32,000 bases of DNA from Candidatus Heimdallarchaeota archaeon (GCA_030668875.1 DAOVER010000001.1:60001-92000), one strand, 5' to 3'; positions 13,949-28,370 are shown, counted from the stretch's first letter. Notes: generated by a model from the sequence alone, not told the origin. Made by a program: numbers and translations.

Positions 13949-13990
13949 ATAATCACATAGTTGTCGTTAGACAATAATTGGAGGTCTAAA

Positions 13991-16900
13991 ATGAAATTTA
14001 AAACAATTTTGGGTTCGACTTTAGTTGGTTTTACACTTATTCTGCTGACAATGAGTAGTACAGTTACTCAAGCTCATTTATCCTCACAGAATAACAGTTC
14101 AAACCTTGAAGTAGATCCAATATTTATTGAAGAAATGAATATTATAGCAGGTAAAGATTCAGCTGCACTAGTACAATTAATTTTACTAGGTGCGAGCGCT
14201 CCAACCATTGCATCAAACTCACTATTTGCAAGTGTTATAAATTGGTTATTTATTGCCTCAGATCAAGCAGATTATCTTCCATATCTTAATCGAAGACCTT
14301 TCAGAGCTGCAGATAATGCAACATTAATTTTAGAAATTGATGGCTCTTTAGGTGCTACTGGAAGTCTTGCTAAGGCTGTAGAAATAAGTATCCTTTTTGC
14401 AACATATTATGATGTAGGTTTGTTCTGGTCAGGAGCTGACAAACTTCTAAATAACAACTACCTATACTACTTCACAGGTGGTATGGAGAACACTATTTTC
14501 AATACTCTAATTACAGAGATAAGAGCTGATGTTGGTACAGGTTTTGCTTCACTACTTGACCCAGCAACAGTAAGTGGTGCTCCCGTAAAAACAGTTGTTA
14601 TTGGTGAAGGGTTTATTGAAGGAAGAATGCTTCCTGTTCGTGGAGTTTTCTACGTAGATGATGACGCTATTACAGGTACAACAACTTACACACTGTCAAC
14701 TTTAGAGTTGTTTGGAACAAATGTAGTTGCAAAAACTGGTATTGGGATATACTATTCTACACTAAAATTTAATTTCCCATATACAATTAATCCTCTCGAA
14801 ATATTCCCAAGAACAGATAACTTTGCCCCTCATATAACTGGAAAAATGGATTGGTTGCTTAATGCACCTTGGCGATTAGCTAGGCCAGCTCAAGATTACT
14901 ACGTTGTATTTGACATTAATCATGATGCGCTGACTTCAGCTCCAAGAGTTTCTGTAAATATGGCATATGATCAAGACATGCTAAACAATGCAGGTCGCTT
15001 ACAGATGGATTATGTTGTAACCAATACAGGAACAGAAAACGCAACAGATATTGATATCAGTTATTCACTTGGACCAGACTTTCTAGACTTTCTGGCTGCT
15101 AAACCAGATATGCCAGCACTTCGTCCAGATGTATATATAGATGAAACAGTATTAATCAAAATCAATGCATCAATTGATATTGAAGTAGGTCCTCAATTAG
15201 AAGGATGGGGTGTTGAAGATCAACATCACAACCAAATAGGTTTGGTGTTGGATGGTTGGTACAAATGGACTGCAAATGACTCACTAGTTGATTTTGATCC
15301 ATTACTCACTGATGTTGTTGTGAAATCAGATTCAGCCCAAATAGTAATTGTGCCAATTGTAGATGAACAAGTGACCACATCAATATCCTTGCATTGTGAT
15401 GACGGGCTTTCTAAAATACTAGTATCAACAGTAACAGCTTATCTAGCTGATATTGACATAACTGATTATATGCCTTACACTCTTGCAACAGTTCCGCTAA
15501 TGTTAGCAGATTATGAGACTGAACTATGGCTCGCTGTAGAAAATGCAGGAACTGAATTGTATGATTTGTTATATACAGAGCAATCTATCTTTGATCCTTA
15601 CTTAATGGACTTCACATTCTCTGTTCGAGATGTTGGAGTAATTGGATTAGATTCAGTTGAGGAAGTTTTCTTGAATACAACAATACCTTTCCTAGGTGTT
15701 GGTGAATCAGTCAATGTCAGTTGGGCATTAGACAACATTCCAGCTAAAGATGACTTCTTTGGAATTATGGGTGTTGAATTGATAGATAACGGAGATCCCG
15801 CAAACGCTGTGAAATTAACAACAGTTAAACAAACTGGTTATAACTTGATGAGATTGCTCTTTGGTTATGGAGATCCTGGCGCAACATTTACTTACAGTCG
15901 TCCACTCAGTTTCTATAGTCCCTGGGACAACAATTGGATTTCAGTAGGTGCTAGATATAGCTATCTCGATGAACAAGGTTTCGAATATTATGGTTTCAGT
16001 AATGGAATCAACTTACAAATTGCTGATGATGAAGCTGTTCTTAATGTCCATGTTTCATTAGATCAAACTGGTTACACAGTTGGAGACGCAATAACTGTAA
16101 CTTATTCTGTTACAAACACTGGAAATCTTGCTGCTGAAAATGTCAAAATCTATCTCTTCCATGGAAGAATGGGTAATGACTGGCAAATTAGAGATGCTAA
16201 ACTGTTCTACTATGATGATGTTGGAACAGTTGTTGCTGGTGGAAGTTACGTCGGAACAGCTGATGTTTTTGCCAATTCTTTCCTAGGAATTCATCCAGTT
16301 TATGCAGTAGCAGAATTTGACACTGACGTTGGTCAAACTGCATTATCTGATGGAATTGTTAACTTTGGAAACGGTTTAATTTCTATATTTGAAGGCGCAG
16401 CAGAAACTCACCATTTAGTACTATCTAATATGGATTGGGCTATGTTACTCCCCGACACAGAGAATAGAGAACCAGCATTCCCACAACCAATACTATCAAT
16501 CGATGTGTCTGTGTTGTTCATCATCCCAGATGATGCTCCTTGGGAATTAGAGATTTCTATTACTATCACCAACATTGGTGACGAGACTACTCACTTGACC
16601 ATCTATCAGATTTACAATGCAACTTCAATGGACTTATTACACAAAGAATCCACCAAAGGTAGCATTGCTAATGATACTGCTTATGGATTAGGTGTTATCG
16701 TCTTTCTAGGTATAACATTGGCTCCCGGTGAATCAGTTGAGATTACAATGAGATGGTTATTCCTCACAAGCAGTGGATGTTTCATTCCAGGTATTCGTAT
16801 AGTCTATGATAGTAGATTTGAGAACGAATTGGGTGATGATCCAATGGGAGATCCTCCAGAAGAAGACGTTATGACAGCGATGAATGGTGAAGCCCAAGAT

Positions 16901-17083
16901 AGTGAAGATTGGGAAGACTATGGAGAATCCACACAAACAGGTTCTTCAGCAGGTGCTGATGTCTTTACTGGTGGAGATAACACTCGTAGAACAGGATCAC
17001 TCGATGCCCTTTATTGGTCATTAGGTGCAATCTTTGTAGTTGCAACAGTTTCAACAATGTTGAGAAGAAAACTAAAACACTAA
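13991..17083 (+). CDS. Large secreted, C-terminally anchored surface protein with CARDB/DUF11-like Ig folds (1030 aa)
   Basis: A GGAGGT RBS precedes ATG 13991 (the ORF track starts at TTG 13961). Signal peptide MKFKTILG..TVTQA, three 'V(T/S)NTG/ITNIG' Ig-like motifs, an acidic linker, and a TM helix plus RRKLKH. Confidence 0.85.
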   Translation: MKFKTILGSTLVGFTLILLTMSSTVTQAHLSSQNNSSNLEVDPIFIEEMNIIAGKDSAALVQLILLGASAPTIASNSLFASVINWLFIASDQADYLPYLNRRPFRAADNATLILEIDGSLGATGSLAKAVEISILFATYYDVGLFWSGADKLLNNNYLYYFTGGMENTIFNTLITEIRADVGTGFASLLDPATVSGAPVKTVVIGEGFIEGRMLPVRGVFYVDDDAITGTTTYTLSTLELFGTNVVAKTGIGIYYSTLKFNFPYTINPLEIFPRTDNFAPHITGKMDWLLNAPWRLARPAQDYYVVFDINHDALTSAPRVSVNMAYDQDMLNNAGRLQMDYVVTNTGTENATDIDISYSLGPDFLDFLAAKPDMPALRPDVYIDETVLIKINASIDIEVGPQLEGWGVEDQHHNQIGLVLDGWYKWTANDSLVDFDPLLTDVVVKSDSAQIVIVPIVDEQVTTSISLHCDDGLSKILVSTVTAYLADIDITDYMPYTLATVPLMLADYETELWLAVENAGTELYDLLYTEQSIFDPYLMDFTFSVRDVGVIGLDSVEEVFLNTTIPFLGVGESVNVSWALDNIPAKDDFFGIMGVELIDNGDPANAVKLTTVKQTGYNLMRLLFGYGDPGATFTYSRPLSFYSPWDNNWISVGARYSYLDEQGFEYYGFSNGINLQIADDEAVLNVHVSLDQTGYTVGDAITVTYSVTNTGNLAAENVKIYLFHGRMGNDWQIRDAKLFYYDDVGTVVAGGSYVGTADVFANSFLGIHPVYAVAEFDTDVGQTALSDGIVNFGNGLISIFEGAAETHHLVLSNMDWAMLLPDTENREPAFPQPILSIDVSVLFIIPDDAPWELEISITITNIGDETTHLTIYQIYNATSMDLLHKESTKGSIANDTAYGLGVIVFLGITLAPGESVEITMRWLFLTSSGCFIPGIRIVYDSRFENELGDDPMGDPPEEDVMTAMNGEAQDSEDWEDYGESTQTGSSAGADVFTGGDNTRRTGSLDALYWSLGAIFVVATVSTMLRRKLKH

Positions 17084-17114
17084 TTTTTCTTTTTCTTTCT
17101 TTTTCTTTTCTTTT
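17084..17114 (+). terminator. Archaeal oligo-U/pyrimidine-tract terminator
   Basis: 31-nt tract of only T and C immediately after the stop codon. Confidence 0.7.
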
Positions 17115-17176
17115 AGTAATTCGTAATAGCTGGTTTTAAATATTGATTTGTCGCTAGATTCCAAGAGCGGGATTCG

Positions 17177-20149
17177 ATGTCTTCTTTAAAACTTTCACCA
17201 GACAACTTCATATTTCATCGTTTAACGCTCCACAATTTTAAGATGCATAAGTTCACAGAATTAGAATTGTCTGAACTGCCTATCATAGTTATCTCAGGTG
17301 CAAATGGTAGTGGAAAAACACAGATTCTCGAAGCTCTTATCCTTTCTATAGGACATACACCAAGTAGAGTAAGCTTGAGTTCATACAAAGATCTTGTTGG
17401 ACCCTTTAATGACCATTGCATAATCCAACTATTTTTGAGAAATCCCACGATAAATGATCAACGATTGATTTCTAGCTCTGATCCTGATATTAGCAATATT
17501 GTAAACAAAGATAGATTTCATTTAGAAATAAGAATCAACAAAGAAGGGGATATGAGAAGAAGCATTGTTGATTCTAAAGGCAAAAAGCAGTCTATTGCTC
17601 GAAAACAAATACAGCGATTAATGAAAAGCATTGGTATTTATGATGATACAATGCTCAATTTTACCGAAGAAGGGTATCTAAGCTCATTTGCTGATGGTTC
17701 TCCACGTAAGAAATTGGAGAGTCTTCTTGCAGCTACTGGACTAAAAGAGATATTTGCAAGTTATTTAACTTCAAAGATAAGAGTTGATGAAAAAAACAGA
17801 GATTTCTCTCCTTTAGTGTTGCAACTTGAAAAAGAAAAAATTTCTTTGAACAAACTGAAAGAAAATTTCGAAAGATTAGAAAAAAAGAGAGAGCTTATCA
17901 CCCGTTTTGAGAATGTTGATAGAGAATTAGTTTGGTTTAACGCATTAGACAGTAAAGATAGATTGCAGGAATCTAATAAAGAACTTACATCCAAGAAAAA
18001 GGAATTAAGTAGTCTAAACACGCAGATGCAATCTACCAATGAGAACTATGACAAAATTAGAAAAGAACTAGAGAAACTGGAGAAAGATAATAATAATTTG
18101 ATTAATGAGAGAGATGAATTAAGTGATAAAGTGAGTCGATTTGAGGGACAGAAAGAAGAAAAGGAAAGAAAAATAAACCAATTCAAGGAAAATCTCAAAA
18201 ACATAGACGAGAAACTTACCGAATTTCGCAAAGTAAAAACCAATGATAATTTAAGTGATAAAATTAGCCTTCAAGATCAACTGAGTAGTATTAAAAAACA
18301 GCAGCAGTATCTAAATGTCAGAATAAAAGATATTTCAAAAGAATTGAGAGAAAAAGCTGTTGAAGAGAAAGAGATTAAGGAACGTATCAATGAACGAGCA
18401 GGTCTTCATGGTGATTTAAGTGATTATGAGAGAAATCTTGTAAAGGATACTGTAAAATTCAAAGAAGGAATCAAATCCTCTCGTTATGCAGGAGAGATTA
18501 TAGGACCAGTTTATGAAATCATAACAATCTTACCTGATTTTGTAGAGTATTCTGAAGTAATAAAGCAAGCTTTGGGTCGAACTTTATTTGGGTTCATTGC
18601 TACATCTGAGGAGGCATATCAGACAGCTAAAGAGATTTACGATACTCTCTTCCCGTCATTTAAACCTAATTTCACAGTAGGAAGAGTACTAGAGGATGAA
18701 CGAGGCCCTAAACCTGATTATCTCACATCCACTGCTATGGGCGAGAAACCAGATGGTGTGATTGATAATGTTATTAATTTAATAGAAACCTCCACTCAAG
18801 TAAAACTATATCTTAAACGATTTGTAAACGTTATTCTTGCAATTCCTGAATTATCACCAAATCTTCTAACCAATTATGCAAAACAGATAAGAGCAAATAT
18901 TCTTACTGCTGATGGTAAGAGTTACTATCTATCTAGAGAAGCTTTTTCCAGACCACCAAGAAAATATCGTGTGAAATTAAATGTTTCTTTGGATAAATAT
19001 CTGTCAATAGAAAGGATACGTGAAAACTTACAAAATCTTTATTCTAACATGGAAGAGTTAGTTACAGAAGAAAGCAAATATATTCAAGAAATAAGCCAAC
19101 TTGAAAATAAGAAAAGAGAAATAGAAAATTCTCTGCGACCATGGGAGATATCAGGAGACGAATTAGAAAGAGAATTTATCAATCTAGAAAATAAGAAGGA
19201 TGAGATTGAACAACAATTAAAAGAAGAAAATATTGGTTTGGAACAGATTGAGGAGAAAATCGAAAGTCATACTTCTCATTTAATTGAGATGGATAATGAA
19301 TTAAAAATCAAAAGAAGTCTTGAAAATAAAAAGAGAAATGAGTTTTCAGAATTAACACATAATATCAATGAGCTTTCATCCAAAAAAAACAGGATTATCA
19401 GGCATGTTGAATTGTTGAATATTGAGGTGGGGGAAATAGAGACACAGCACAACGAATTGCTCGGTTTGGCTCAAGAGAAAGGCTTACAGCCTGAAATTAT
19501 CCGTGAAAATAAGGAGGAAATCTTCTCAGATTATAACAAAATTAAAGGGCAACTTGAACTGCTAGAAATAACACCCAAAGTAACTGAAGAAACTTTGAAA
19601 GAGCAAGAAAGTAAAGTTGAGAAATTACAAATAGAAGTAGAAGAAAATCAAAAACACTTGGATAATCTCAAGAAAGATTTAGATAAACGTTTAGCTGAAT
19701 GGGAAGGTAGTTTGTACCAAATAGTTTCCCACCTTAATAAAATGCTCAATTTACTTCTAAAAGACGTTTTTGCGAATATCTCTTTAAGTATCGTAAACTA
19801 CAATGATGAAACAAATTCAGGGTTGATAATTGAGGCTGAAACAAAAGGTGATGAAAGAAAATATAGACAGTTATCAGGTGGGGAAAAAACGTTAATCGCT
19901 CAAGCTATAATCTTAGCACTCCACATGATAAACCATTCCCCAATTCATGCCATTGATGAGTTTACGCAAAAATTAGATAAGAAGAATAAATCATTAGCTT
20001 TTTCAATGGCTTTGGCTACCTATGAGATAGCAAAAGAGAATAGATCTATAACCCCGCAATTTCTTCTAATTACTCCTTCGCTTGATGAAGTTCAACTTTC
20101 AGATGAGTTTACACATAAAATATTAATTGAATCTAAGGTGATTGTATGA
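17177..20149 (+). CDS. SMC-family ATPase, Smc5/6-related
   Basis: Walker A GANGSGKT (17297-17320), two long coiled coils flanking a hinge (IIGPVYEII..ALGRTLFGFIA), signature LSGGEKT, Walker B/D-loop IHAIDEFTQKLD, and QFLLITP in place of the H-loop. Confidence 0.92.
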   Translation: MSSLKLSPDNFIFHRLTLHNFKMHKFTELELSELPIIVISGANGSGKTQILEALILSIGHTPSRVSLSSYKDLVGPFNDHCIIQLFLRNPTINDQRLISSSDPDISNIVNKDRFHLEIRINKEGDMRRSIVDSKGKKQSIARKQIQRLMKSIGIYDDTMLNFTEEGYLSSFADGSPRKKLESLLAATGLKEIFASYLTSKIRVDEKNRDFSPLVLQLEKEKISLNKLKENFERLEKKRELITRFENVDRELVWFNALDSKDRLQESNKELTSKKKELSSLNTQMQSTNENYDKIRKELEKLEKDNNNLINERDELSDKVSRFEGQKEEKERKINQFKENLKNIDEKLTEFRKVKTNDNLSDKISLQDQLSSIKKQQQYLNVRIKDISKELREKAVEEKEIKERINERAGLHGDLSDYERNLVKDTVKFKEGIKSSRYAGEIIGPVYEIITILPDFVEYSEVIKQALGRTLFGFIATSEEAYQTAKEIYDTLFPSFKPNFTVGRVLEDERGPKPDYLTSTAMGEKPDGVIDNVINLIETSTQVKLYLKRFVNVILAIPELSPNLLTNYAKQIRANILTADGKSYYLSREAFSRPPRKYRVKLNVSLDKYLSIERIRENLQNLYSNMEELVTEESKYIQEISQLENKKREIENSLRPWEISGDELEREFINLENKKDEIEQQLKEENIGLEQIEEKIESHTSHLIEMDNELKIKRSLENKKRNEFSELTHNINELSSKKNRIIRHVELLNIEVGEIETQHNELLGLAQEKGLQPEIIRENKEEIFSDYNKIKGQLELLEITPKVTEETLKEQESKVEKLQIEVEENQKHLDNLKKDLDKRLAEWEGSLYQIVSHLNKMLNLLLKDVFANISLSIVNYNDETNSGLIIEAETKGDERKYRQLSGGEKTLIAQAIILALHMINHSPIHAIDEFTQKLDKKNKSLAFSMALATYEIAKENRSITPQFLLITPSLDEVQLSDEFTHKILIESKVIV

Positions 20150-20901
20150 CAGACCAAGAATCTACAGATGGAGCTCACAGTTCGGAGACAACAATGATTG
20201 AAGAGACAAGTGACTGGTCTGAGATAATCTTTCAAACTCTTTTTGAATTAGAAAAAAAATATTCAAAATCGCTCAGGAAGAAAGAAGTAGTAGGAGTGAT
20301 TGAGTCAGAAAATGATAGGAAGAGAGTATCCGATGCTTATATTTACCTTAATAGTCAGAGGGAGAGTCTGGTGGATTCTGCACTATATGAAGGTTTCATT
20401 GACATGGGTGAGTTGAGGGAATCAAGCTATTTGGAACAGATGTTTCTTCTAGAACAAAGACTGAATAACTTTGGGCGATTTGTAGCAAAATCATGCCAGT
20501 CAATATTTTTTACAATGGGGAAACCTACTATAGAATATAGTAGTGTAGATCTCGGAGCTAAACTAGATTTGATAGAATCTGAAGATATGGATGAAATCAA
20601 ACTCTTCATTCGGAGAAATCAAGATGTACTTAGAGTATTTGAAAGCACTTTTTTGAGTTATGGTGATATAGTGAATTATGAAAAAGATTTGTTTGAGAAG
20701 CTTCTAAATAAAAGATTCAAGAAAAAAGAATTGGAAGGTCTATTATCAGTAGTAGAAACTGAAATCTTATCTAAGATGATCAGTGAGAAAAAAATAAGAG
20801 TGGTTCAACAAGATGACTATCTTATATTTTCAAAGAACGGTGATTATGAAGAATTAAAGGGAATATCTAGTAGTGTTCTTCTATCACCAAAGAAAAACTG
20901 A
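20146..20901 (+). CDS. Putative kleisin (ScpA/Nse4-like) subunit
   Basis: ATGA overlap with the SMC stop; 251 aa. N-terminal helical region RKRVSDAYIYLNSQ and C-terminal winged-helix-like end LSKMISEKKIRVVQQDDYLIF. Confidence 0.55.
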   Translation: MTDQESTDGAHSSETTMIEETSDWSEIIFQTLFELEKKYSKSLRKKEVVGVIESENDRKRVSDAYIYLNSQRESLVDSALYEGFIDMGELRESSYLEQMFLLEQRLNNFGRFVAKSCQSIFFTMGKPTIEYSSVDLGAKLDLIESEDMDEIKLFIRRNQDVLRVFESTFLSYGDIVNYEKDLFEKLLNKRFKKKELEGLLSVVETEILSKMISEKKIRVVQQDDYLIFSKNGDYEELKGISSSVLLSPKKN

Positions 20902-20909
20902 GAAGTGAT

Positions 20910-21515
20910 GTGCTAATGGAAGAGGAGTTTCACAATACGGATGAAGTACAAGGTGACAAACCTGAAATTGTCAAACTTCCAGCAGCTATAACAGATGAAG
21001 AAAAAAGTGAATTGTTCAAAGAATTAACTACTATTCTGTCTAGAAGATGGGTTAAAGACAAGATATTCGTTTTTGGAAGTTCAGAGATTGATCTTCTACT
21101 TGCAACAAGATTTGACATTGATACGCTTCGTGAGATTATTGAAGAATACAAAAGATTTGTTGAAATTCTTGGATTGGAAGTAGTGGAATATACTCTTGAC
21201 GGTGAAATGTGGTATAGTTTAAAATCTGCATTTTATGCTCCTTCAGAATTAATGAAGAGCGAATTCGTTGTTCTTGGAACAATAATTGGGATCCTTGAAA
21301 CCCAGACAGAACCTCTTTTAACAAAGATAATTAAAGAAAAATTAATCGATACAAACAGAATGAAAGCGTATCAAGTTGATTTATGTTTACGAAAATTAAC
21401 ACAACAAGGCTATATAAAGAGACACCAGAATGTTTTGTCATATAATTATAGAACTCTAGTCGAATATGGAGAAGAAGAAAGGAGAAAAATAGCAGAGGAG
21501 TTTCGAAAAATTTGA
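20910..21515 (+). CDS. Putative KITE (tandem winged-helix, Nse1/Nse3/ScpB-like) subunit
   Basis: LREIIEEYKRFVEILGLEVVEYTLDGEMWYSL (WH-A) and VDLCLRKLTQQGYIKRHQNVLSYNYRTLVE (WH-B). The start could be ATG 20916. Confidence 0.68.
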   Translation: MLMEEEFHNTDEVQGDKPEIVKLPAAITDEEKSELFKELTTILSRRWVKDKIFVFGSSEIDLLLATRFDIDTLREIIEEYKRFVEILGLEVVEYTLDGEMWYSLKSAFYAPSELMKSEFVVLGTIIGILETQTEPLLTKIIKEKLIDTNRMKAYQVDLCLRKLTQQGYIKRHQNVLSYNYRTLVEYGEEERRKIAEEFRKI

Positions 21516-21967
21516 AAGAAATAGAAATTTTACACTGTTATATAAGATGTGCTTTTTGTAATTCATTGATGATGCTGAAAGAAGCTGCATTAGGAGGTTG
21601 GGAGGTTTGTAATGGATGTCAACTTGTGTTCTGTTCTAAATGTAAAAATGAATACAAATCATTAGAAGTGTGTCCTGGTTCAGTTTATGTCAGTGAGCAC
21701 AAACCAATTTTCGACTTATTGCCAATAGAACAAATATTTGATCTCTCTATGCAGATGCAAAGAAAACCAAAAGAAGGAAGGTTTGTTCCAAAGATATTTT
21801 TTGAAGATGAAAAAACAAAAGTGAACATCATAGAAAACAAAAGCAAACAGAAACAAGAAATGGATTTCAGCATAGTAAGGTTTAGAGAAGAACAATGGAG
21901 AAAATTCGGAACTGTTTTAGTTAAAAGAAAGGATGGAAAATTTCTCACTTGGGGTCAAATTGATTAA
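21512..21967 (+). CDS. RING-variant zinc-finger protein
   Basis: TTGA overlap with the KITE stop. C13-x2-C16-x16-C33-x2-C36-x4-C41-x2-C44-x9-C54(PG)-x8-H63. Confidence 0.75.
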   Translation: MKEIEILHCYIRCAFCNSLMMLKEAALGGWEVCNGCQLVFCSKCKNEYKSLEVCPGSVYVSEHKPIFDLLPIEQIFDLSMQMQRKPKEGRFVPKIFFEDEKTKVNIIENKSKQKQEMDFSIVRFREEQWRKFGTVLVKRKDGKFLTWGQID

Positions 21968-23793: not shown

Positions 23794-26742
23794 ATGGCAA
23801 GCTCGAAAAAGAGAGAAAAGGATGAAAACAAGTCAACAAAAAAAACTAAACAAAAAAAATCTTTTCTTGATATGGTGTATATAAAATTACTCCGTGATCC
23901 TTCAACTAACTTAATTGTTGTTATTGTATCTATTGTCTTTATCATTTGGATGGTAGTTCCATTAGTCCTAGTTTTATCAGGTGGGGTCTACTTTAATGGT
24001 ATATGGTCTACTCAACCGATCAATACTGTGTTTACCGATGAAGTTCATTTCAATTTCCCTGGGGATACTACAACACATCTGTGGCAAATGGGAGTGCAGC
24101 AAATCGGGGGCCCATCAGTATCTGTAATTGTTCGAGATGACATTGCATTTGTTGCTGAAAGAGGAGAGGGTATTGAAATCCTTAATGTTACGGACCCAGA
24201 ATCACTCACGGAAATTATTGATTATTATGATAACGAGAGTTATTTCATGGATATGGAAATACGAGGTGATTATCTTTATACAGCAGCTGGTGAAAATGGA
24301 CTAACCATTTTTGACATTTCAGATGTATACAATACCTTTTTACCTGTAAGTTTCCTTCCTGGTTTGACTAATTATTCAAATTTCGTAACATTAGATAATA
24401 ACCTTATATACCTTGATAATAATAAAAAAGGATTTTCCATAATTGATGTTTCAGATGTCACTAATCCAGAAGTACTATCAAATATAACTATTGAAAGCGG
24501 TTCAGAAGACCTAGCTATCTTAGGAGATTATGCCTATATAGTTGGATCTGATGTTGCACTAGTTGTATATGATGTGAGTAATTCAAATAACCCAATCTTA
24601 GTGAATTCTTTTGATTATGAGATTAGTAATAGATCCATTACTACCAAAGCTATAGACATTGTAGGAAATTCGGCTTATGTTGCACTTGGGCTTTCTGGTT
24701 TGGCGATTTTTGATATTTCTGATCCGCTAAATATTTCTTTGTTAGGTTACAAATCTGACATAAAATCCGTTGGTGTTGATGTTGTAGGTGATTATAGTTA
24801 TGTAACTGTTCATGATGTTAGTGTTGATGATTATGGACTTACAATATTAGATACTTCTAACTTTTCAGATATCTCTGAAATAAGTTATTACAACACTACA
24901 CTTCTTATGACAGAAGATATTTTCATCGATGAAATATCAAACAGGATTTACCTTGCGCAAGGTAAAGGTGGAATCCATGTTATAGATGGTTCAAACATTC
25001 TAGCTTTAAGTTTTATGGGTGATTATAAGGATACAACAGATGTGAATGTCTTGCTCCTTAGTGGAGTAAATAGAGGCGTTGTAGTAAACACTATAATACT
25101 AGGATTATCAACAACTCTTTTCTCTGTAATATTAGGTACAGCATTGGCTTTTATCTTAGCAAGATTTGAGTTTCCTGGTAAAAGATTGGTTAGTATATTG
25201 GCACTAGCTCCTCTTATTATACCGCCGTTTATTTCTGGTATGGGATTCCGTCTAATTCTTGGTCCAAATGGTTTTTTAAACAATTTCTTCTTGGTTCCAA
25301 ATTTTGAATTCAAAATTATATTTGAAGGTTTCGTAGCAATTACCCTTGTTCAAACATCACATTTCTATGCTTTAGTTTATCTCAATGCATTTTCTTCCTT
25401 TATCAATATTGACCCAACAATGGAGGAGTCGGCAGAAAATTTGGGTGCTAGTAGTTTCAGATTGTTTAGCACTATAACACTCCCTCTTGCAATGCCCGGA
25501 ATTGGAGCAGGAGCAATATTAGTTTTAATCCTCTCAATGGAAGACGTTGGAACACCGATAATTTTTGCAGGTATGGGAGATCCTGCTGCAAAAAATTATC
25601 TGACGTATTATATTTTTGAAAACTATGCTAGAGCTGCGACGGTGGAAGTCACGCCTGAAGTGTGTGTTTTAGGTGGTATTTTGCTAATCATGGCAATCAT
25701 TGGATTTTTTGTGATTAGAAAGTATATCTCTCTCCGGAAATATTCTATGGTATCAAAAGGTCGAGCTGGACAATACCGTATGGCAAAAGCAGGATGGAAA
25801 TTGTTATTCATCTATCCATTCCTTATACTATTATTCGCATATTCGCTCATGGTGCATATAGGAGTGATTCTTATGTCTCTAATGACAACTCTGGGTGCTG
25901 GAAGCCCGAGTGAGATAAAATTCACGCTTGAAAATTATAGATTAATTTTCGTTTCTTCAGCCTACGATATACCGCCGTATTTGGTTAATACTTTATTATA
26001 TAGTGTAATCGCTACATTGCTGATAGTTGTTCTAGGTTCATTAGCAGCTTATGTAATAAGTAGAAAAGATTTCAGGGGTAAGCAACTTCTAGATGCTCTA
26101 GTAACTTTACCTATAGCTATCCCGGGGATCGTACTAGCGATTGGTTATTACAGAGCTTTTGATTGGAGTGGAATAGCTGCTGGTTACCCTCCCGAAACTC
26201 CAATAACTTCCTTTATGGGTTATTACCAAGCCTTTGATTGGAGTGCTATCCCTAGTATAGCAGTTACCAAATGGTTCGCGGAATCAATGGCATGGATGAC
26301 GGCATCTCTTCGTTTAGATCCATTTATCGGAGTAGCTGTTACCTTACTTATACTGAGCTATACCGTTAGAAAATTCCCATTTACAGTACGATCAGCTTAT
26401 GCAGGATTGCAACAAATGGACGTGGTCTTAGAGGAAGCAGCTTTTAATCTTGGAGCTAGTAGAGCAAAAACTTTCACAAGTATTACTATACCATTAATCT
26501 CCCTAAATGTTTTTGCTGGATCTCTTGTATCATTCCTCTATTGTTTATCTGAAGTATCAACAACAATATTCTTGATATTTCAGGCAAATGCTGGAACATT
26601 AACATGGTACATGGCATGGAATCCTTTGAAATTCCAGATATTTTGTGCATTAGGTGTTATATTGATGTTCTTGCAGATTGTAAGTCTATTCATAACCAAT
26701 ATTATCTTGGGATCAAGAGCAGAAGCTATAACTGGTATCTAA
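23794..26742 (+). CDS. ABC transporter permease (FbpB/ThiP-like, two fused TM modules) with an inserted LVIVD-repeat beta-propeller
   Basis: NTIILG..LAFILARFEFPGK..PLIIPPF, two EAA loops (EESAENLGAS and EEAAFNLGAS), and seven LVIVD repeats at about 24106-25035. Confidence 0.9.
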   Translation: MASSKKREKDENKSTKKTKQKKSFLDMVYIKLLRDPSTNLIVVIVSIVFIIWMVVPLVLVLSGGVYFNGIWSTQPINTVFTDEVHFNFPGDTTTHLWQMGVQQIGGPSVSVIVRDDIAFVAERGEGIEILNVTDPESLTEIIDYYDNESYFMDMEIRGDYLYTAAGENGLTIFDISDVYNTFLPVSFLPGLTNYSNFVTLDNNLIYLDNNKKGFSIIDVSDVTNPEVLSNITIESGSEDLAILGDYAYIVGSDVALVVYDVSNSNNPILVNSFDYEISNRSITTKAIDIVGNSAYVALGLSGLAIFDISDPLNISLLGYKSDIKSVGVDVVGDYSYVTVHDVSVDDYGLTILDTSNFSDISEISYYNTTLLMTEDIFIDEISNRIYLAQGKGGIHVIDGSNILALSFMGDYKDTTDVNVLLLSGVNRGVVVNTIILGLSTTLFSVILGTALAFILARFEFPGKRLVSILALAPLIIPPFISGMGFRLILGPNGFLNNFFLVPNFEFKIIFEGFVAITLVQTSHFYALVYLNAFSSFINIDPTMEESAENLGASSFRLFSTITLPLAMPGIGAGAILVLILSMEDVGTPIIFAGMGDPAAKNYLTYYIFENYARAATVEVTPEVCVLGGILLIMAIIGFFVIRKYISLRKYSMVSKGRAGQYRMAKAGWKLLFIYPFLILLFAYSLMVHIGVILMSLMTTLGAGSPSEIKFTLENYRLIFVSSAYDIPPYLVNTLLYSVIATLLIVVLGSLAAYVISRKDFRGKQLLDALVTLPIAIPGIVLAIGYYRAFDWSGIAAGYPPETPITSFMGYYQAFDWSAIPSIAVTKWFAESMAWMTASLRLDPFIGVAVTLLILSYTVRKFPFTVRSAYAGLQQMDVVLEEAAFNLGASRAKTFTSITIPLISLNVFAGSLVSFLYCLSEVSTTIFLIFQANAGTLTWYMAWNPLKFQIFCALGVILMFLQIVSLFITNIILGSRAEAITGI
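24106..25035 (+). repeat. Seven protein-level LVIVD repeats
   Basis: GIEILNVTDP, GLTIFDISD, GFSIIDVSDVTNP, LVVYDVSNSNNP, GLAIFDISDP, GLTILDTSN and GIHVIDGSN, each preceded by a (Y/A)(A/L/I)Y-like strand. Confidence 0.85.
26143..26250 (+). repeat. In-frame imperfect direct repeat (33 nt, period 75 nt) inside the permease
   Basis: GGTTATTACAGAGCTTTTGATTGGAGTGGAATA (26143-26175) versus GGTTATTACCAAGCCTTTGATTGGAGTGCTATC (26218-26250), 27/33 identical. Confidence 0.8.
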
Positions 26743-26765: not shown

Positions 26766-28370
26766 TTATTGAAAATGGATTTTTCTTTGTTCGTAACCCA
26801 ATTTTCCTCCATTTTCATCTTGGAAGATAAATTCAACTAAAGTTTTCCCTAGAAAATTTGTTGCTGGAATTTCTATCATAATAGGATCATGGGAATTTCT
26901 TTCAAGCAATAACGGGTAGAGATGGCTAGTATAGATTCCGCCACGAACAAAAGATATCCTAAGTGTTCCAGTAACATCCTCATCTCCTCTATTATACATA
27001 TGAACAGGAATATTGAAAGGTTTGTGAACAGGGGCTGTCTCTGGAGCTGTTACTCTAATGTCGATATTATGAACCTGTTGCTCTAGGTCAAGACTTGGTA
27101 TGGAATGTTTCCAGGATATATCCTCGAAAAGTGTACCCTTTGTTCCTAGCTCAAATTCTGTAGGTATTTCTTTCATCTTTTTCATTATTCTTCCTTTATC
27201 ACTTTGAATGTCAATGAAAGTGTGTAATGTTATCTTGTTGTTTTGAATATCATCATAGAAGTAACGAATCTGTCTAATTGGAGAATCTCCCATCGTATTG
27301 CCACGTTGTAAAATTATACATCCAGGATTTCGCAGTAAATATCTCGTATCTTCTTGTAAAGTAGGATCAATTGGGATCCATATGCCATTTGCAAAAAACT
27401 CAGCTTGTGAATGATGTTGCCATTCTCCATTTTCGCTTTGTATTGTACTAGTAGTAAGTCTTGCAGGTACATTAGCGGCTCTACAAAGGCTTACAAACAG
27501 TGAGGCAAATTCAGTACAATCTCCATATCTATTTTCTAGAGCATAAAGCGCTCCAAAATCACCACTTTGAGGAAGGAATTGAATATTCTCTCTTAGGAAT
27601 TTTAAGAACGATAGAACCTTACTTAATGCTGAAAAACTACTCACTTTTTGAGCTATGCGAATGATTTTTCTATTTGAAGAATCAATAAATGGTTCATCTT
27701 GTGTATATTTTTGAAAAGTTTCAGGATAAAGATTTTCTATATCCTTTTCCTCTGACTTTATTCTTGTAACATCATAGGAAACCAATCTAGTAATAATAAG
27801 CGCACGATATGCGATAGTTATTTTTTCATTAGGGTCGAGTTGTGCAAAGTAAAATCTCATCCATCTGTTTCCTTCTTTATCTGCAATTAATTTACTAGGT
27901 CGAAAGTTACACTCAATTTTTGTAACTTGTTGAATGGGCGAGATATTAGGGGGTATCATAATATCTATGGTAAAATCATTGATGGGATTATTATTTGGAT
28001 TTATTATCTTGACACCATATGTAAATATCCATCGATGCATTAACTGTTTCTTCGTTTTAATATTTACCTTTGCTATTCGTTTAAAATCTCCATCTAACTG
28101 CAGGATATAGGTACCAGAAAAAAGATCGGGTGTTATCGGAAAACGATAAATGTGACGGAGACCTGTTTCATCTAACCGAAGCTGATCTGAATCAATAATT
28201 GTTCCCACGGGGGAAATAAACAATATATGTAGTCTGAGTTTTTGATTTGACTGTACAAAGGGAATTTGTTCTTCTTCACCTGCAATTAATATACTATCCC
28301 CTACCTCAAGAACTGTTTGTGGAGTAAGTATACGTGATTTGCTATGCCTTACATGAAATATCTCGATCAT
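26766..28370 (-). CDS. Transglutaminase-like (papain-fold Cys-His-Asp) domain protein
   Basis: GDCTEFASLFVSLCRAANVPAR, HHSQAEF and WIPIDPT. No signal peptide. Confidence 0.88.
   Translation of the reverse strand: MIEIFHVRHSKSRILTPQTVLEVGDSILIAGEEEQIPFVQSNQKLRLHILFISPVGTIIDSDQLRLDETGLRHIYRFPITPDLFSGTYILQLDGDFKRIAKVNIKTKKQLMHRWIFTYGVKIINPNNNPINDFTIDIMIPPNISPIQQVTKIECNFRPSKLIADKEGNRWMRFYFAQLDPNEKITIAYRALIITRLVSYDVTRIKSEEKDIENLYPETFQKYTQDEPFIDSSNRKIIRIAQKVSSFSALSKVLSFLKFLRENIQFLPQSGDFGALYALENRYGDCTEFASLFVSLCRAANVPARLTTSTIQSENGEWQHHSQAEFFANGIWIPIDPTLQEDTRYLLRNPGCIILQRGNTMGDSPIRQIRYFYDDIQNNKITLHTFIDIQSDKGRIMKKMKEIPTEFELGTKGTLFEDISWKHSIPSLDLEQQVHNIDIRVTAPETAPVHKPFNIPVHMYNRGDEDVTGTLRISFVRGGIYTSHLYPLLLERNSHDPIMIEIPATNFLGKTLVEFIFQDENGGKLGYEQRKIHFQ

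Follow-up and report, generated by a model that had tools for sequence, protein, structure and literature searches.

Positions 17,177 to 21,967 of a 32,000-nucleotide stretch of a Candidatus Heimdallarchaeota archaeon genome (GCA_030668875.1, DAOVER010000001.1:60001-92000) carry four co-directional genes, which encode an SMC-family ATPase, a kleisin candidate, a KITE subunit and a small protein with conserved zinc-ligand residues. The whole 32,000-nucleotide stretch is referred to as the window throughout this paper, and the four genes together as the module. It is somewhat probable, in our judgment, that the module encodes a four-subunit SMC5/6-type complex whose zinc subunit provides a link to ubiquitin-like conjugation, and that the private conjugation cascade of this complex was lost in the present lineage. 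Evidence for this lies in the gene order, which is conserved across Asgard families, and in the genes for ubiquitin-like conjugation that stand beside the zinc gene in sister lineages.

The four-gene operon

The window, with a guanine plus cytosine (GC) content of about 33%, is a chromosomal stretch of a metagenome-assembled genome (MAG) of the Heimdall group of Asgard archaea. The assembly is 92% complete, with 3.23 Mb in 99 contigs, and the sources of close homologues are named Candidatus Heimdallarchaeota or Heimdallarchaeaceae. Among the sequencing runs listed as containing the stretch there is no RNA run, and the only strong ones are four DNA runs on marine sediment from a single study, which may be its source. 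The genes, with the lengths of their products in amino acids (aa) and the basis of each assignment, are as follows:

17177-20149, + strand: gene 1, SMC ATPase, 990 aa (translation, motifs)
20146-20901, + strand: gene 2, kleisin candidate, 251 aa (position, layout of the AlphaFold2 (AF2) model)
20910-21515, + strand: gene 3, predicted KITE subunit, 201 aa (tandem winged helix in the AF2 model; ATG 20916 as probable start)
21512-21967, + strand: gene 4, putative two-zinc protein, 151 aa (TTG start, conserved ligands)

Genes 1 and 2 share an ATGA overlap (20146-20149), an 8-nucleotide (nt) gap separates gene 2 from a GTG at 20910, and genes 3 and 4 share a TTGA overlap (21512-21515). Coordinates and junctions are as claimed in the first-pass annotation, which had been made from the sequence alone. 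The start of gene 3 is more likely the ATG at 20916, with a 14-nt gap, because the homologues begin with MEEE.., and the TTG start of gene 4 is needed because the first methionine follows the first cysteine pair and the orthologues align from residue 4. The operon consists of these four genes only and holds no nuclease, and the earlier statement that a JetD-like nuclease is missing from the unit was thereby confirmed. One transcription unit is plausible on the basis of gene packing and conservation, not of upstream signals, and the unit is more than a chance arrangement because the same order is found in 13 loci of other genomes.

Conservation of the gene order

The survey covered 399 Asgard genomes, which are related and not independent samples; families are designated here by f-numbers. 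The zinc family was found in 68 of these genomes and the KITE family in 61, in the same families and with the two genes adjacent. These families are f1 (26 of 29 genomes), f2, f3, f6, f7, f8, f12 and f29; in f19 and f20, which are large, neither gene occurs. In the 13 loci with flanks from other genomes, the order SMC-kleisin-KITE-zinc gene is unchanged, and all loci inspected, from eight Asgard families and from two contigs of high GC with the label Planctomycetota, agree with it. The prediction that the four genes would be co-conserved in related genomes has thus held.

The two contigs labelled Planctomycetota (L091 and L092, GC 62-67%) carry kleisin-KITE-zinc gene-JAB-E1 in one case and SMC-kleisin-KITE-zinc gene in the other. 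From this gene order, movement of the cassette between domains is probable, assuming that the bins are right; misbinning is the alternative. The same contigs weaken the earlier suggestion that the operon preserves a symmetric complex ancestral to the subunit duplications, since the same cassette is found on them. Two further contigs with this label (L089 and L090, GC 0.33-0.42) carry the zinc gene only. One metagenomic homologue of the zinc gene (L078:10001-10480) stands behind a low-complexity 167-aa gene and beside genes of hydrogenase/heterodisulfide-reductase type.

Ubiquitin-like cassette beside the zinc gene

Genes for a JAB protein, an E1, a candidate ubiquitin-like protein (Ubl) and an E2-like protein were found behind or near the zinc gene in four Asgard families, on a Sifarchaeum contig and on a contig of a Heimdall MAG. 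The genes directly behind the zinc gene in f7 and f8 encode a Prok-JAB protein (E 4.6e-9) and a ThiF-type E1 (E 1e-38), as identified with Pfam in clustered flanking open reading frames (ORFs). The cassette of these two families also encodes a protein of about 105 aa that ends in ..VG, some copies having two to three extra residues as in a Ubl precursor, and an E2-like protein of about 255 aa with the motif LWHPR..G.G.AC and a weak UQ_con match (E 0.004). The cassette genes of f12 lie beside the module in an arrangement that differs from that of f7 and f8, the Sifarchaeum contig has the order KITE-zinc gene-JAB-E1, and all eight genes are co-directional on the Heimdall MAG contig. The E2-like family was detected in 32 of the 399 genomes, which belong only to f6, f7, f8 and f12, all of them module-bearing. 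The JAB and E1 proteins match the E1-E2-JAB models of bacterial defence in PADLOC. The suggestion that the effector of the complex may be ubiquitin-like tagging gains support from these genes, which stand by the zinc gene in sister lineages. In the genome studied here, four UQ_con and two ubiquitin matches were found in eukaryote-like clusters elsewhere.

A shorter paralogue of gene 4 that consists of the zinc module only is present in f7 and f12, and matches the Double zinc ribbon model (Zn_ribbon_6) with E 1.4e-4 and IBR with 0.014. This paralogue is located at a distance of 6-12 kb from the module, ahead of a transglutaminase-like gene:

L040:18105-18479, zinc-module-only paralogue
L043:11141-11533, zinc-module-only paralogue
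L049:10880-11263, zinc-module-only paralogue
L050:19003-19398, zinc-module-only paralogue

A transglutaminase-like protein (Pfam Transglut_core) is also encoded in the window (26766-28370, - strand), 4.8 kb from the operon and with no zinc paralogue beside it; this product is orthologous (E 6e-54) to that of the gene behind the zinc-only paralogue beside the Ubl cassette in f12 and f7.

The two-zinc protein

The ligand residues of the gene 4 product are spaced as C13-x2-C/H16-x16-C33-x2-C36-x4-C41-x2-C44-x9-C54-x8-H63, and its conserved C-terminal domain has the motif EE.W..G.V.VKR.RGKF.TWE. In alignment A3, C33, C36, C41 and C44 are invariant and C13, W30 and C54 almost so; H63 is present in most members, and C, H or D occupies position 16. 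Judged from the sequence, these eight ligands would be enough for two zinc ions. An exhaustive HMMER search returned 33 representative homologues, nearly all of 140-180 aa and aligned from end to end, and the lengths of all true homologues, out of 1.84 billion representatives, fall between 69 and 178 aa. A KITE-RING fusion hidden by a frameshift was considered and rejected: no fused form was found in any locus or in the 1.84 billion representatives.

The canonical RING rule, C-x2-C-x(9-39)-C-x(1-3)-H/C-x(2-3)-C-x2-C-x(4-48)-C-x2-C, fails at two places, as ligands 4 and 5 are four residues apart and ligands 7 and 8 are eight apart. The IBR pattern, C-x(2-4)-C-x(14-30)-C-x(1-4)-C-x4-C-x2-C, is matched by the first six ligands, which also agree with C4C4 RING variants of the NOT4 and CesA types. 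When 25 family members were searched one by one against Pfam, their matches scattered over RING, FYVE, B-box and IBR models, none of them above cut-off; the best was zf-RING_UBOX (E 1.9e-4), and zf-RING_4 appeared in 5 of the 25. The single gene 4 sequence matched IBR_1 of Pfam with E 0.07, and the family profile against the PDB gave only E-values above 0.1 (0.1-10), mostly with RING-family proteins. A language-model search with residues 1-70 placed IBR-domain clusters in 8 of the 10 rows shown, with a borderline best score of 0.91. In the ESM Atlas, no usable match was obtained with the whole protein, and a homologue reached scores of only about 0.8.

A fair description of the gene 4 product, on its spacing and profile matches, is therefore a putative "two-zinc module of the RING/IBR world", for which a RING is not established; the spacing and the weak profile matches seem to fit an IBR or a double zinc ribbon at least as well. 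The earlier claim that the fourth subunit is a RING protein had to be given up, because the canonical spacing fails, no RING model passes and the best weak signals are those of IBR and double zinc ribbon. A complex prediction with the kleisin, two KITE copies, the zinc protein and two zinc ions, scored for the zinc protein alone, gave 0.47, 0.00 and 0.00 in its runs, which speaks neither for nor against binding.

The SMC ATPase

The translation of gene 1 contains the Walker A (GANGSGKT), signature (LSGGEK) and Walker B (..IDEF) motifs of an SMC ATPase at both ends of the chain, and the motif residues are invariant in ten orthologues (alignment A4). The arms are short, with about 220 aa, and a hinge-like segment occupies the center (about residues 425-600). 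The orthologues score above the cut-off of SMC_N. The Pfam SMC_hinge model has no match in the gene 1 product, and in the orthologues it stays below threshold (E 0.002-0.005, residues 450-570). NCBIfam SMC_prok_B scores 123 bits, with a cut-off of 567 bits.

Comparison of the single sequence with solved structures placed yeast Smc6 and Smc5 first (Smc6, E 7.6e-9). The family profile scored 136-144 bits with Smc6 (five entries), 85 with Smc4, 68 with Smc5, 67 with Smc3 and about 42 with Rad50, and Smc1-5 reached at most 85 bits. The ranking of Smc6 over Rad50 rules out the Rad50/SbcC alternative. The earlier description of the ATPase is supported by these scores as far as a position closest to Smc6 among the eukaryotic SMCs, and not to Rad50, is concerned. 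We take UBA460 to be the former GTDB name of this Heimdall lineage. For a UBA460 genome (order/family), one SMC5/6-related SMC, one Nse1/3-related kite, no canonical subunits and no kleisin were tabulated (van Hooff et al., bioRxiv 2024.01.07.573240), and the SMC5/6-related group of archaeal SMCs was defined in the same study and in an earlier one (Yoshinaga and Inagaki, 2021, PMC8665677). The membership of gene 1 in this clade leans on the literature, as the profile scores alone do not settle it.

In another genome of the family (G015), a 223-aa ORF (L047:11639-12307) strongly resembles part of the module SMC (E 5e-70). This ORF, which is separated by about 2 kb from the intact SMC gene downstream, may be a duplicated fragment or a pseudogene.

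The KITE subunit and the kleisin candidate

The AF2 model of the gene 3 product, built from 28 homologues, has a pLDDT (predicted local distance difference test) value of 82 and contains two winged helices in tandem. Significant Foldseek matches were ScpB of Pyrococcus, with the best E-value (4e-5), Nse1 and NSE1; MukE, JetB and MAGE followed in later rows, and KITEs make up the top of the list. The template modeling (TM) scores were 0.50 for Nse1 and 0.49 for Nse3. A wide structure search (VIA) gave these matches:

Nse3 7dg2_C, Z 11.1, 164 residues
ScpB 3w6j_C, Z 9.9, 141 residues
NSE1 5hvq_C, Z 9.9, 158 residues
yeast SMC5/6 core-complex chain C, 7tve_C, Z 9.6, 155 residues

All VIA matches that cover both winged helices are KITEs, and matches to a single winged helix (64-87 residues) have similarly high scores (Z up to 9.9). 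At the sequence level, the KITE family profile found nothing significant in the PDB, and no profile similarity to ScpB of the Asgard genomes that hold both systems was detected. The structural model shows a KITE fold closest to Nse3 and Nse1, which are the top full-length matches in Foldseek and VIA, in agreement with the assignment first given to this ORF.

The gene 2 product has an acidic N-terminus, N-terminal helices, a disordered middle, a C-terminal winged helix (residues 172-230) and a conserved tail, ..SSSVLLSPK. Its AF2 model has the layout of a kleisin, with a mean pLDDT of 59 and a value of about 80 in the winged helix. The gene stands between the SMC and KITE genes here and in every locus with enough flank. 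The family profile had a single marginal match in the PDB, to Nse1 (E 0.023), which is not relied on. Alignment with Asgard ScpA by hhalign gave a probability of 0.6%, over an alignment that spans the C-terminal halves of both proteins including both C-terminal winged helices, and profile comparison with the KITE family indicated no relation. Foldseek returned generic winged helices under a top row with a condensin II chain (E 0.054), and the VIA search returned generic winged-helix domains (Z about 6) and RAD21 (Z 4.9), with no clear kleisin.

Based on its position, size and architecture, including the C-terminal winged helix, the 251-aa protein is very probably a kleisin. Position is the strongest argument, because the gene lies between SMC and KITE genes everywhere, as in the published operons. 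The proposal that ORF2 encodes a kleisin thus stands as far as position, size and C-terminal winged helix are concerned, and finds no backing in sequence or profile similarity to kleisins.

Other SMC systems in the genomes

SMC_hinge, ScpA and ScpB had no match in the genome studied here (92% completeness). Within the genus, a hinge match was obtained in 3 of 23 genomes, two of the three on truncated ORFs, in bins with 6-8% contamination. Genomes of f7, f8 and f12 encode a canonical SMC of 1200 aa with an adjoining ScpA, in addition to the module. Some Asgard lineages thus have the module as their second SMC system, and in the present genome it is apparently the only one. Family f4, of the same order (12 genomes), has neither the four-gene module nor an SMC_hinge match, and its SMC system, if any, is of another kind.

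Proposed mechanism and alternative explanations

According to the model that we favor, a homodimer of the short-armed, Smc6-like SMC would form an ATP-driven DNA clamp. The 251-aa kleisin would bridge the heads by contacting one neck through the N-terminal helices and the other cap through the C-terminal winged helix, and a dimer of the Nse1/3-like KITE would sit on the middle of the kleisin. The 151-aa two-zinc protein would be a dedicated partner, most likely an E3-like adaptor to ubiquitin-like conjugation, and the tagged target could be the complex itself or proteins on the DNA that it has captured. The sister lineages encode the conjugation kit right behind the zinc gene; it comprises a JAB protease, an E1, a Gly-terminated Ubl and an E2-like enzyme. 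In the present genome, which is without the private kit, the zinc protein might use the eukaryote-like ubiquitin genes or have a structural or DNA-binding role only. The complex probably also performs general chromosome organization, because no canonical SMC-ScpAB was found in the genome. A more far-reaching proposal is that the two-zinc protein is an E3-like ligase or adaptor, that the physical coupling of SMC5/6 to ubiquitin/SUMO-type conjugation is pre-eukaryotic and started from a separate subunit served by its own E1-E2-Ubl-JAB kit, and that the present lineage lost this kit and may have connected the subunit to its eukaryote-like ubiquitin system instead; taken as a whole, we regard this proposal as doubtful.

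Several observations count against a four-subunit complex linked to conjugation. This genome has no E2-like or Ubl gene of the linked type, so that the tie to conjugation has to be taken over from its relatives. The last ligand pair of gene 4, C-x8-H, fits neither RING nor IBR (H-x4-C in IBR), and no RING or IBR model scores above its cut-off. The gene 2 model is poor overall, as its mean pLDDT indicates, and the sequence has no match in Pfam, NCBIfam, PADLOC or the PDB sequences and no likeness to ScpA or Nse4. With the profile that ranks Smc6 first, four canonical Asgard SMCs of full length reach 68, 76, 102 and 151 bits; these values overlap those of Smc6, and an assignment of the SMC to the SMC5/6 clade therefore does not follow from our own data alone. 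The metagenomic homologue L078 stands without an SMC module and is an exception to the synteny. The related genomes are not independent samples; the argument from adjacency rests on its retention through rearrangement and across at least four family-level lineages. The first-pass annotation had itself named three findings that would speak against it, namely genes 2 and 3 without winged-helix folds, no co-conservation in related genomes, and an ATPase grouping with Rad50/SbcC/ClsN; none of the three applies, as winged helices were predicted in both products, the four genes are kept together, and the ATPase scores higher with Smc6 than with Rad50.

The same complex could also exist with a zinc protein that is purely structural or binds nucleic acid, as a double zinc ribbon with a small C-terminal domain, the Ubl adjacency being inherited synteny. 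This is fairly unlikely in our estimate, although the zinc gene is kept in this genome and in f1-f3 where the cassette is absent, its paralogue matches the Double zinc ribbon of Pfam (E 1.4e-4), RING models stay below cut-off, and in the rearranged f12 the zinc gene stays with the SMC genes and not with the Ubl genes. It does not readily account for an E2-like family that is confined to module-bearing families and, through rearrangement, has stayed at most a few kb away from the module, nor for the recurrence of KITE-zinc gene-JAB-E1 on a high-GC contig labelled Planctomycetota, and zinc modules of such a ligand pattern are typical of the ubiquitin-ligase world. Several facts could be read as signs of a mobile defence cassette, which would restrict plasmids or viruses in the manner of Wadjet, with ubiquitin-like tagging in place of the nuclease, and would not be a housekeeping system: the order is the same on the contigs labelled Planctomycetota with 62-67% GC, the distribution across Asgard families is patchy, f7, f8 and f12 hold a canonical SMC-ScpA operon as well, and E1-E2-JAB sets are known in bacterial defence, with PADLOC models of this kind matched by the JAB and E1 proteins. 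However, the module is the only SMC-type complex found in this genome and in most of its genus, its neighbours are housekeeping and transport genes, and PADLOC gave no strong match to JetA, JetB or JetD and only a weak one to JetC, with no nuclease present, which makes a defence role improbable.

Very improbable, finally, is the idea that the operon simply encodes a rapidly evolving canonical SMC-ScpA-ScpB condensin and that the small gene behind it is unrelated. The order smc-kleisin-kite is that of SMC-ScpAB, Pyrococcus ScpB has the best Foldseek E-value for gene 3, and one canonical Asgard SMC reaches 151 bits with the family profile; yet the NCBIfam SMC equivalogs remain far below cut-off (123 vs 567 bits), the families have no profile relation to ScpA or ScpB of Asgard genomes that hold both systems, some genomes hold both systems side by side, and the fourth gene is strictly co-conserved. 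Published trees also put the SMC and kite of UBA460, presumably the present lineage, with SMC5/6 and Nse1/3. The SMC5/6-type complex with a zinc subunit linked to conjugation remains the explanation that we prefer.

Upstream signals and neighbouring genes

Two sequence features lie between the operon and the gene upstream:

17084-17114, + strand: T/C-rich tract of 31 nt with T5 runs, after the upstream surface-protein gene
17134-17142, + strand: TATA-like word TTTTAAATA, 43 nt before the SMC ATG

The tract had been called a strong terminator, a description that does not apply to a T/C tract without a hairpin: none was found in 17084-17114 (minimum free energy -1.2 kcal/mol, z 0.26). It is plausible as a possible archaeal oligo-T terminator, and only in that sense. 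The word TTTTAAATA occurs three times in the window, where 2.24 occurrences are expected, which is chance level, and a promoter role could be assigned to it from its position only. The inference of one transcription unit from these two signals stands in its outcome, which packing and conservation make plausible, and fails in its premises, with a terminator that has no hairpin and a TATA word at chance level.

The operon is flanked by a gene for a CARDB-type surface protein upstream and by an ABC transporter downstream, and genes for ArgRS, PGK, Cgi121 and a Roadblock/LC7 protein lie further out. The surface protein (13961-17083, + strand) has 1040 aa and is of CARDB/DUF11 type; homologues are found upstream of the module elsewhere in the family too, and synteny within the family is thus wider than the operon. 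A 982-aa ORF (23794-26742, + strand) combines an ABC permease (BPD_transp_1) with LVIVD repeats.

Comparison with known systems

Archaeal SMC-kleisin-kite operons have been reported from TACK and Asgard archaea (PMC8665677; bioRxiv 10.1101/2024.01.07.573240). This three-gene core is therefore no new discovery. Like the published SMC5/6-related operons, the module has the order SMC, kleisin and Nse1/3-like kite, and it coexists with canonical SMC-ScpAB or replaces it; unlike these three-subunit operons, it has a fourth, two-zinc gene strictly attached, and in sister lineages the Ubl cassette too. Compared with the tabulated UBA460 genome without a kleisin, and assuming that UBA460 is this lineage, the 251-aa gene fills the gap. 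In full-text searches of the literature, no paper was found in which an archaeal SMC operon is connected with a zinc subunit or a Ubl cascade. The new elements are the zinc subunit strictly attached to a known core and its link to the Ubl cassette; no paper on either was found.

The module differs from canonical SMC-ScpAB in the low score of its SMC (123 bits vs the 567-bit cut-off) and in a genome in which the ScpA and ScpB models find nothing. With Wadjet (JetABCD) it shares an SMC-family ATPase, a kleisin and a KITE, JetB being among the fold matches of gene 3; unlike Wadjet, it has no JetD Toprim nuclease, JetC scores are weak, the neighbourhood is not a defence island, and PADLOC made no defence assignment for genes 2-4. 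The cassette of the sister lineages resembles the prokaryotic E1-E2-JAB-Ubl operons of the Bil type in its JAB, ThiF-type E1, small Gly-ending protein and E2-like HP(R/N)...C protein. The Caldiarchaeum-type archaeal ubiquitin operon with a small RING protein is a further system for comparison (PMC5654768). Unlike the prokaryotic E1-E2-JAB-Ubl operons, the sister-lineage cassette is attached to an SMC module, and it is absent from this window and genome.

The eukaryotic Smc5/6 holocomplex consists of Smc5-Smc6, the Nse4 kleisin, the KITEs Nse1 and Nse3, the RING of Nse1 and the SP-RING protein Nse2, and it is through the Nse1 RING and the Nse2 SP-RING that eukaryotic SMC5/6 is coupled to ubiquitin and SUMO conjugation. 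To our knowledge, no other SMC complex has ubiquitin and SUMO ligases built in. In the current evolutionary account, this ligase feature is regarded as a eukaryotic addition, and the Nse1 RING, absent from archaeal kites, was interpreted as a eukaryotic innovation (bioRxiv 10.1101/2024.01.07.573240). If the model proposed here is true, the origin of the coupling between SMC5/6 and tagging moves into the archaeal, or broader prokaryotic, world, and the coupling could be tested with a set of only four to eight proteins, all small and amenable to recombinant production. The operon is also apparently the only SMC-type machine found in its genome, which would make it a natural case of reliance on an SMC5/6-type complex alone.

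Unlike eukaryotic Smc5/6, the operon has one SMC gene and one KITE gene, whose products presumably form homodimers, and no counterpart of Nse2, Nse5 or Nse6 was seen. Unlike Nse1, which unites KITE and zinc module in one chain, the zinc module is a separate ORF with non-RING spacing in all loci, and no fusion of KITE and zinc protein was found among the 1.84 billion representatives. Like eukaryotic Smc5/6, the archaeal system combines a Smc6-like ATPase, a predicted KITE closest to Nse3 and Nse1 and a candidate zinc-module partner tied to protein tagging, and the tie of SMC5/6 to protein tagging may be older than the eukaryotes.

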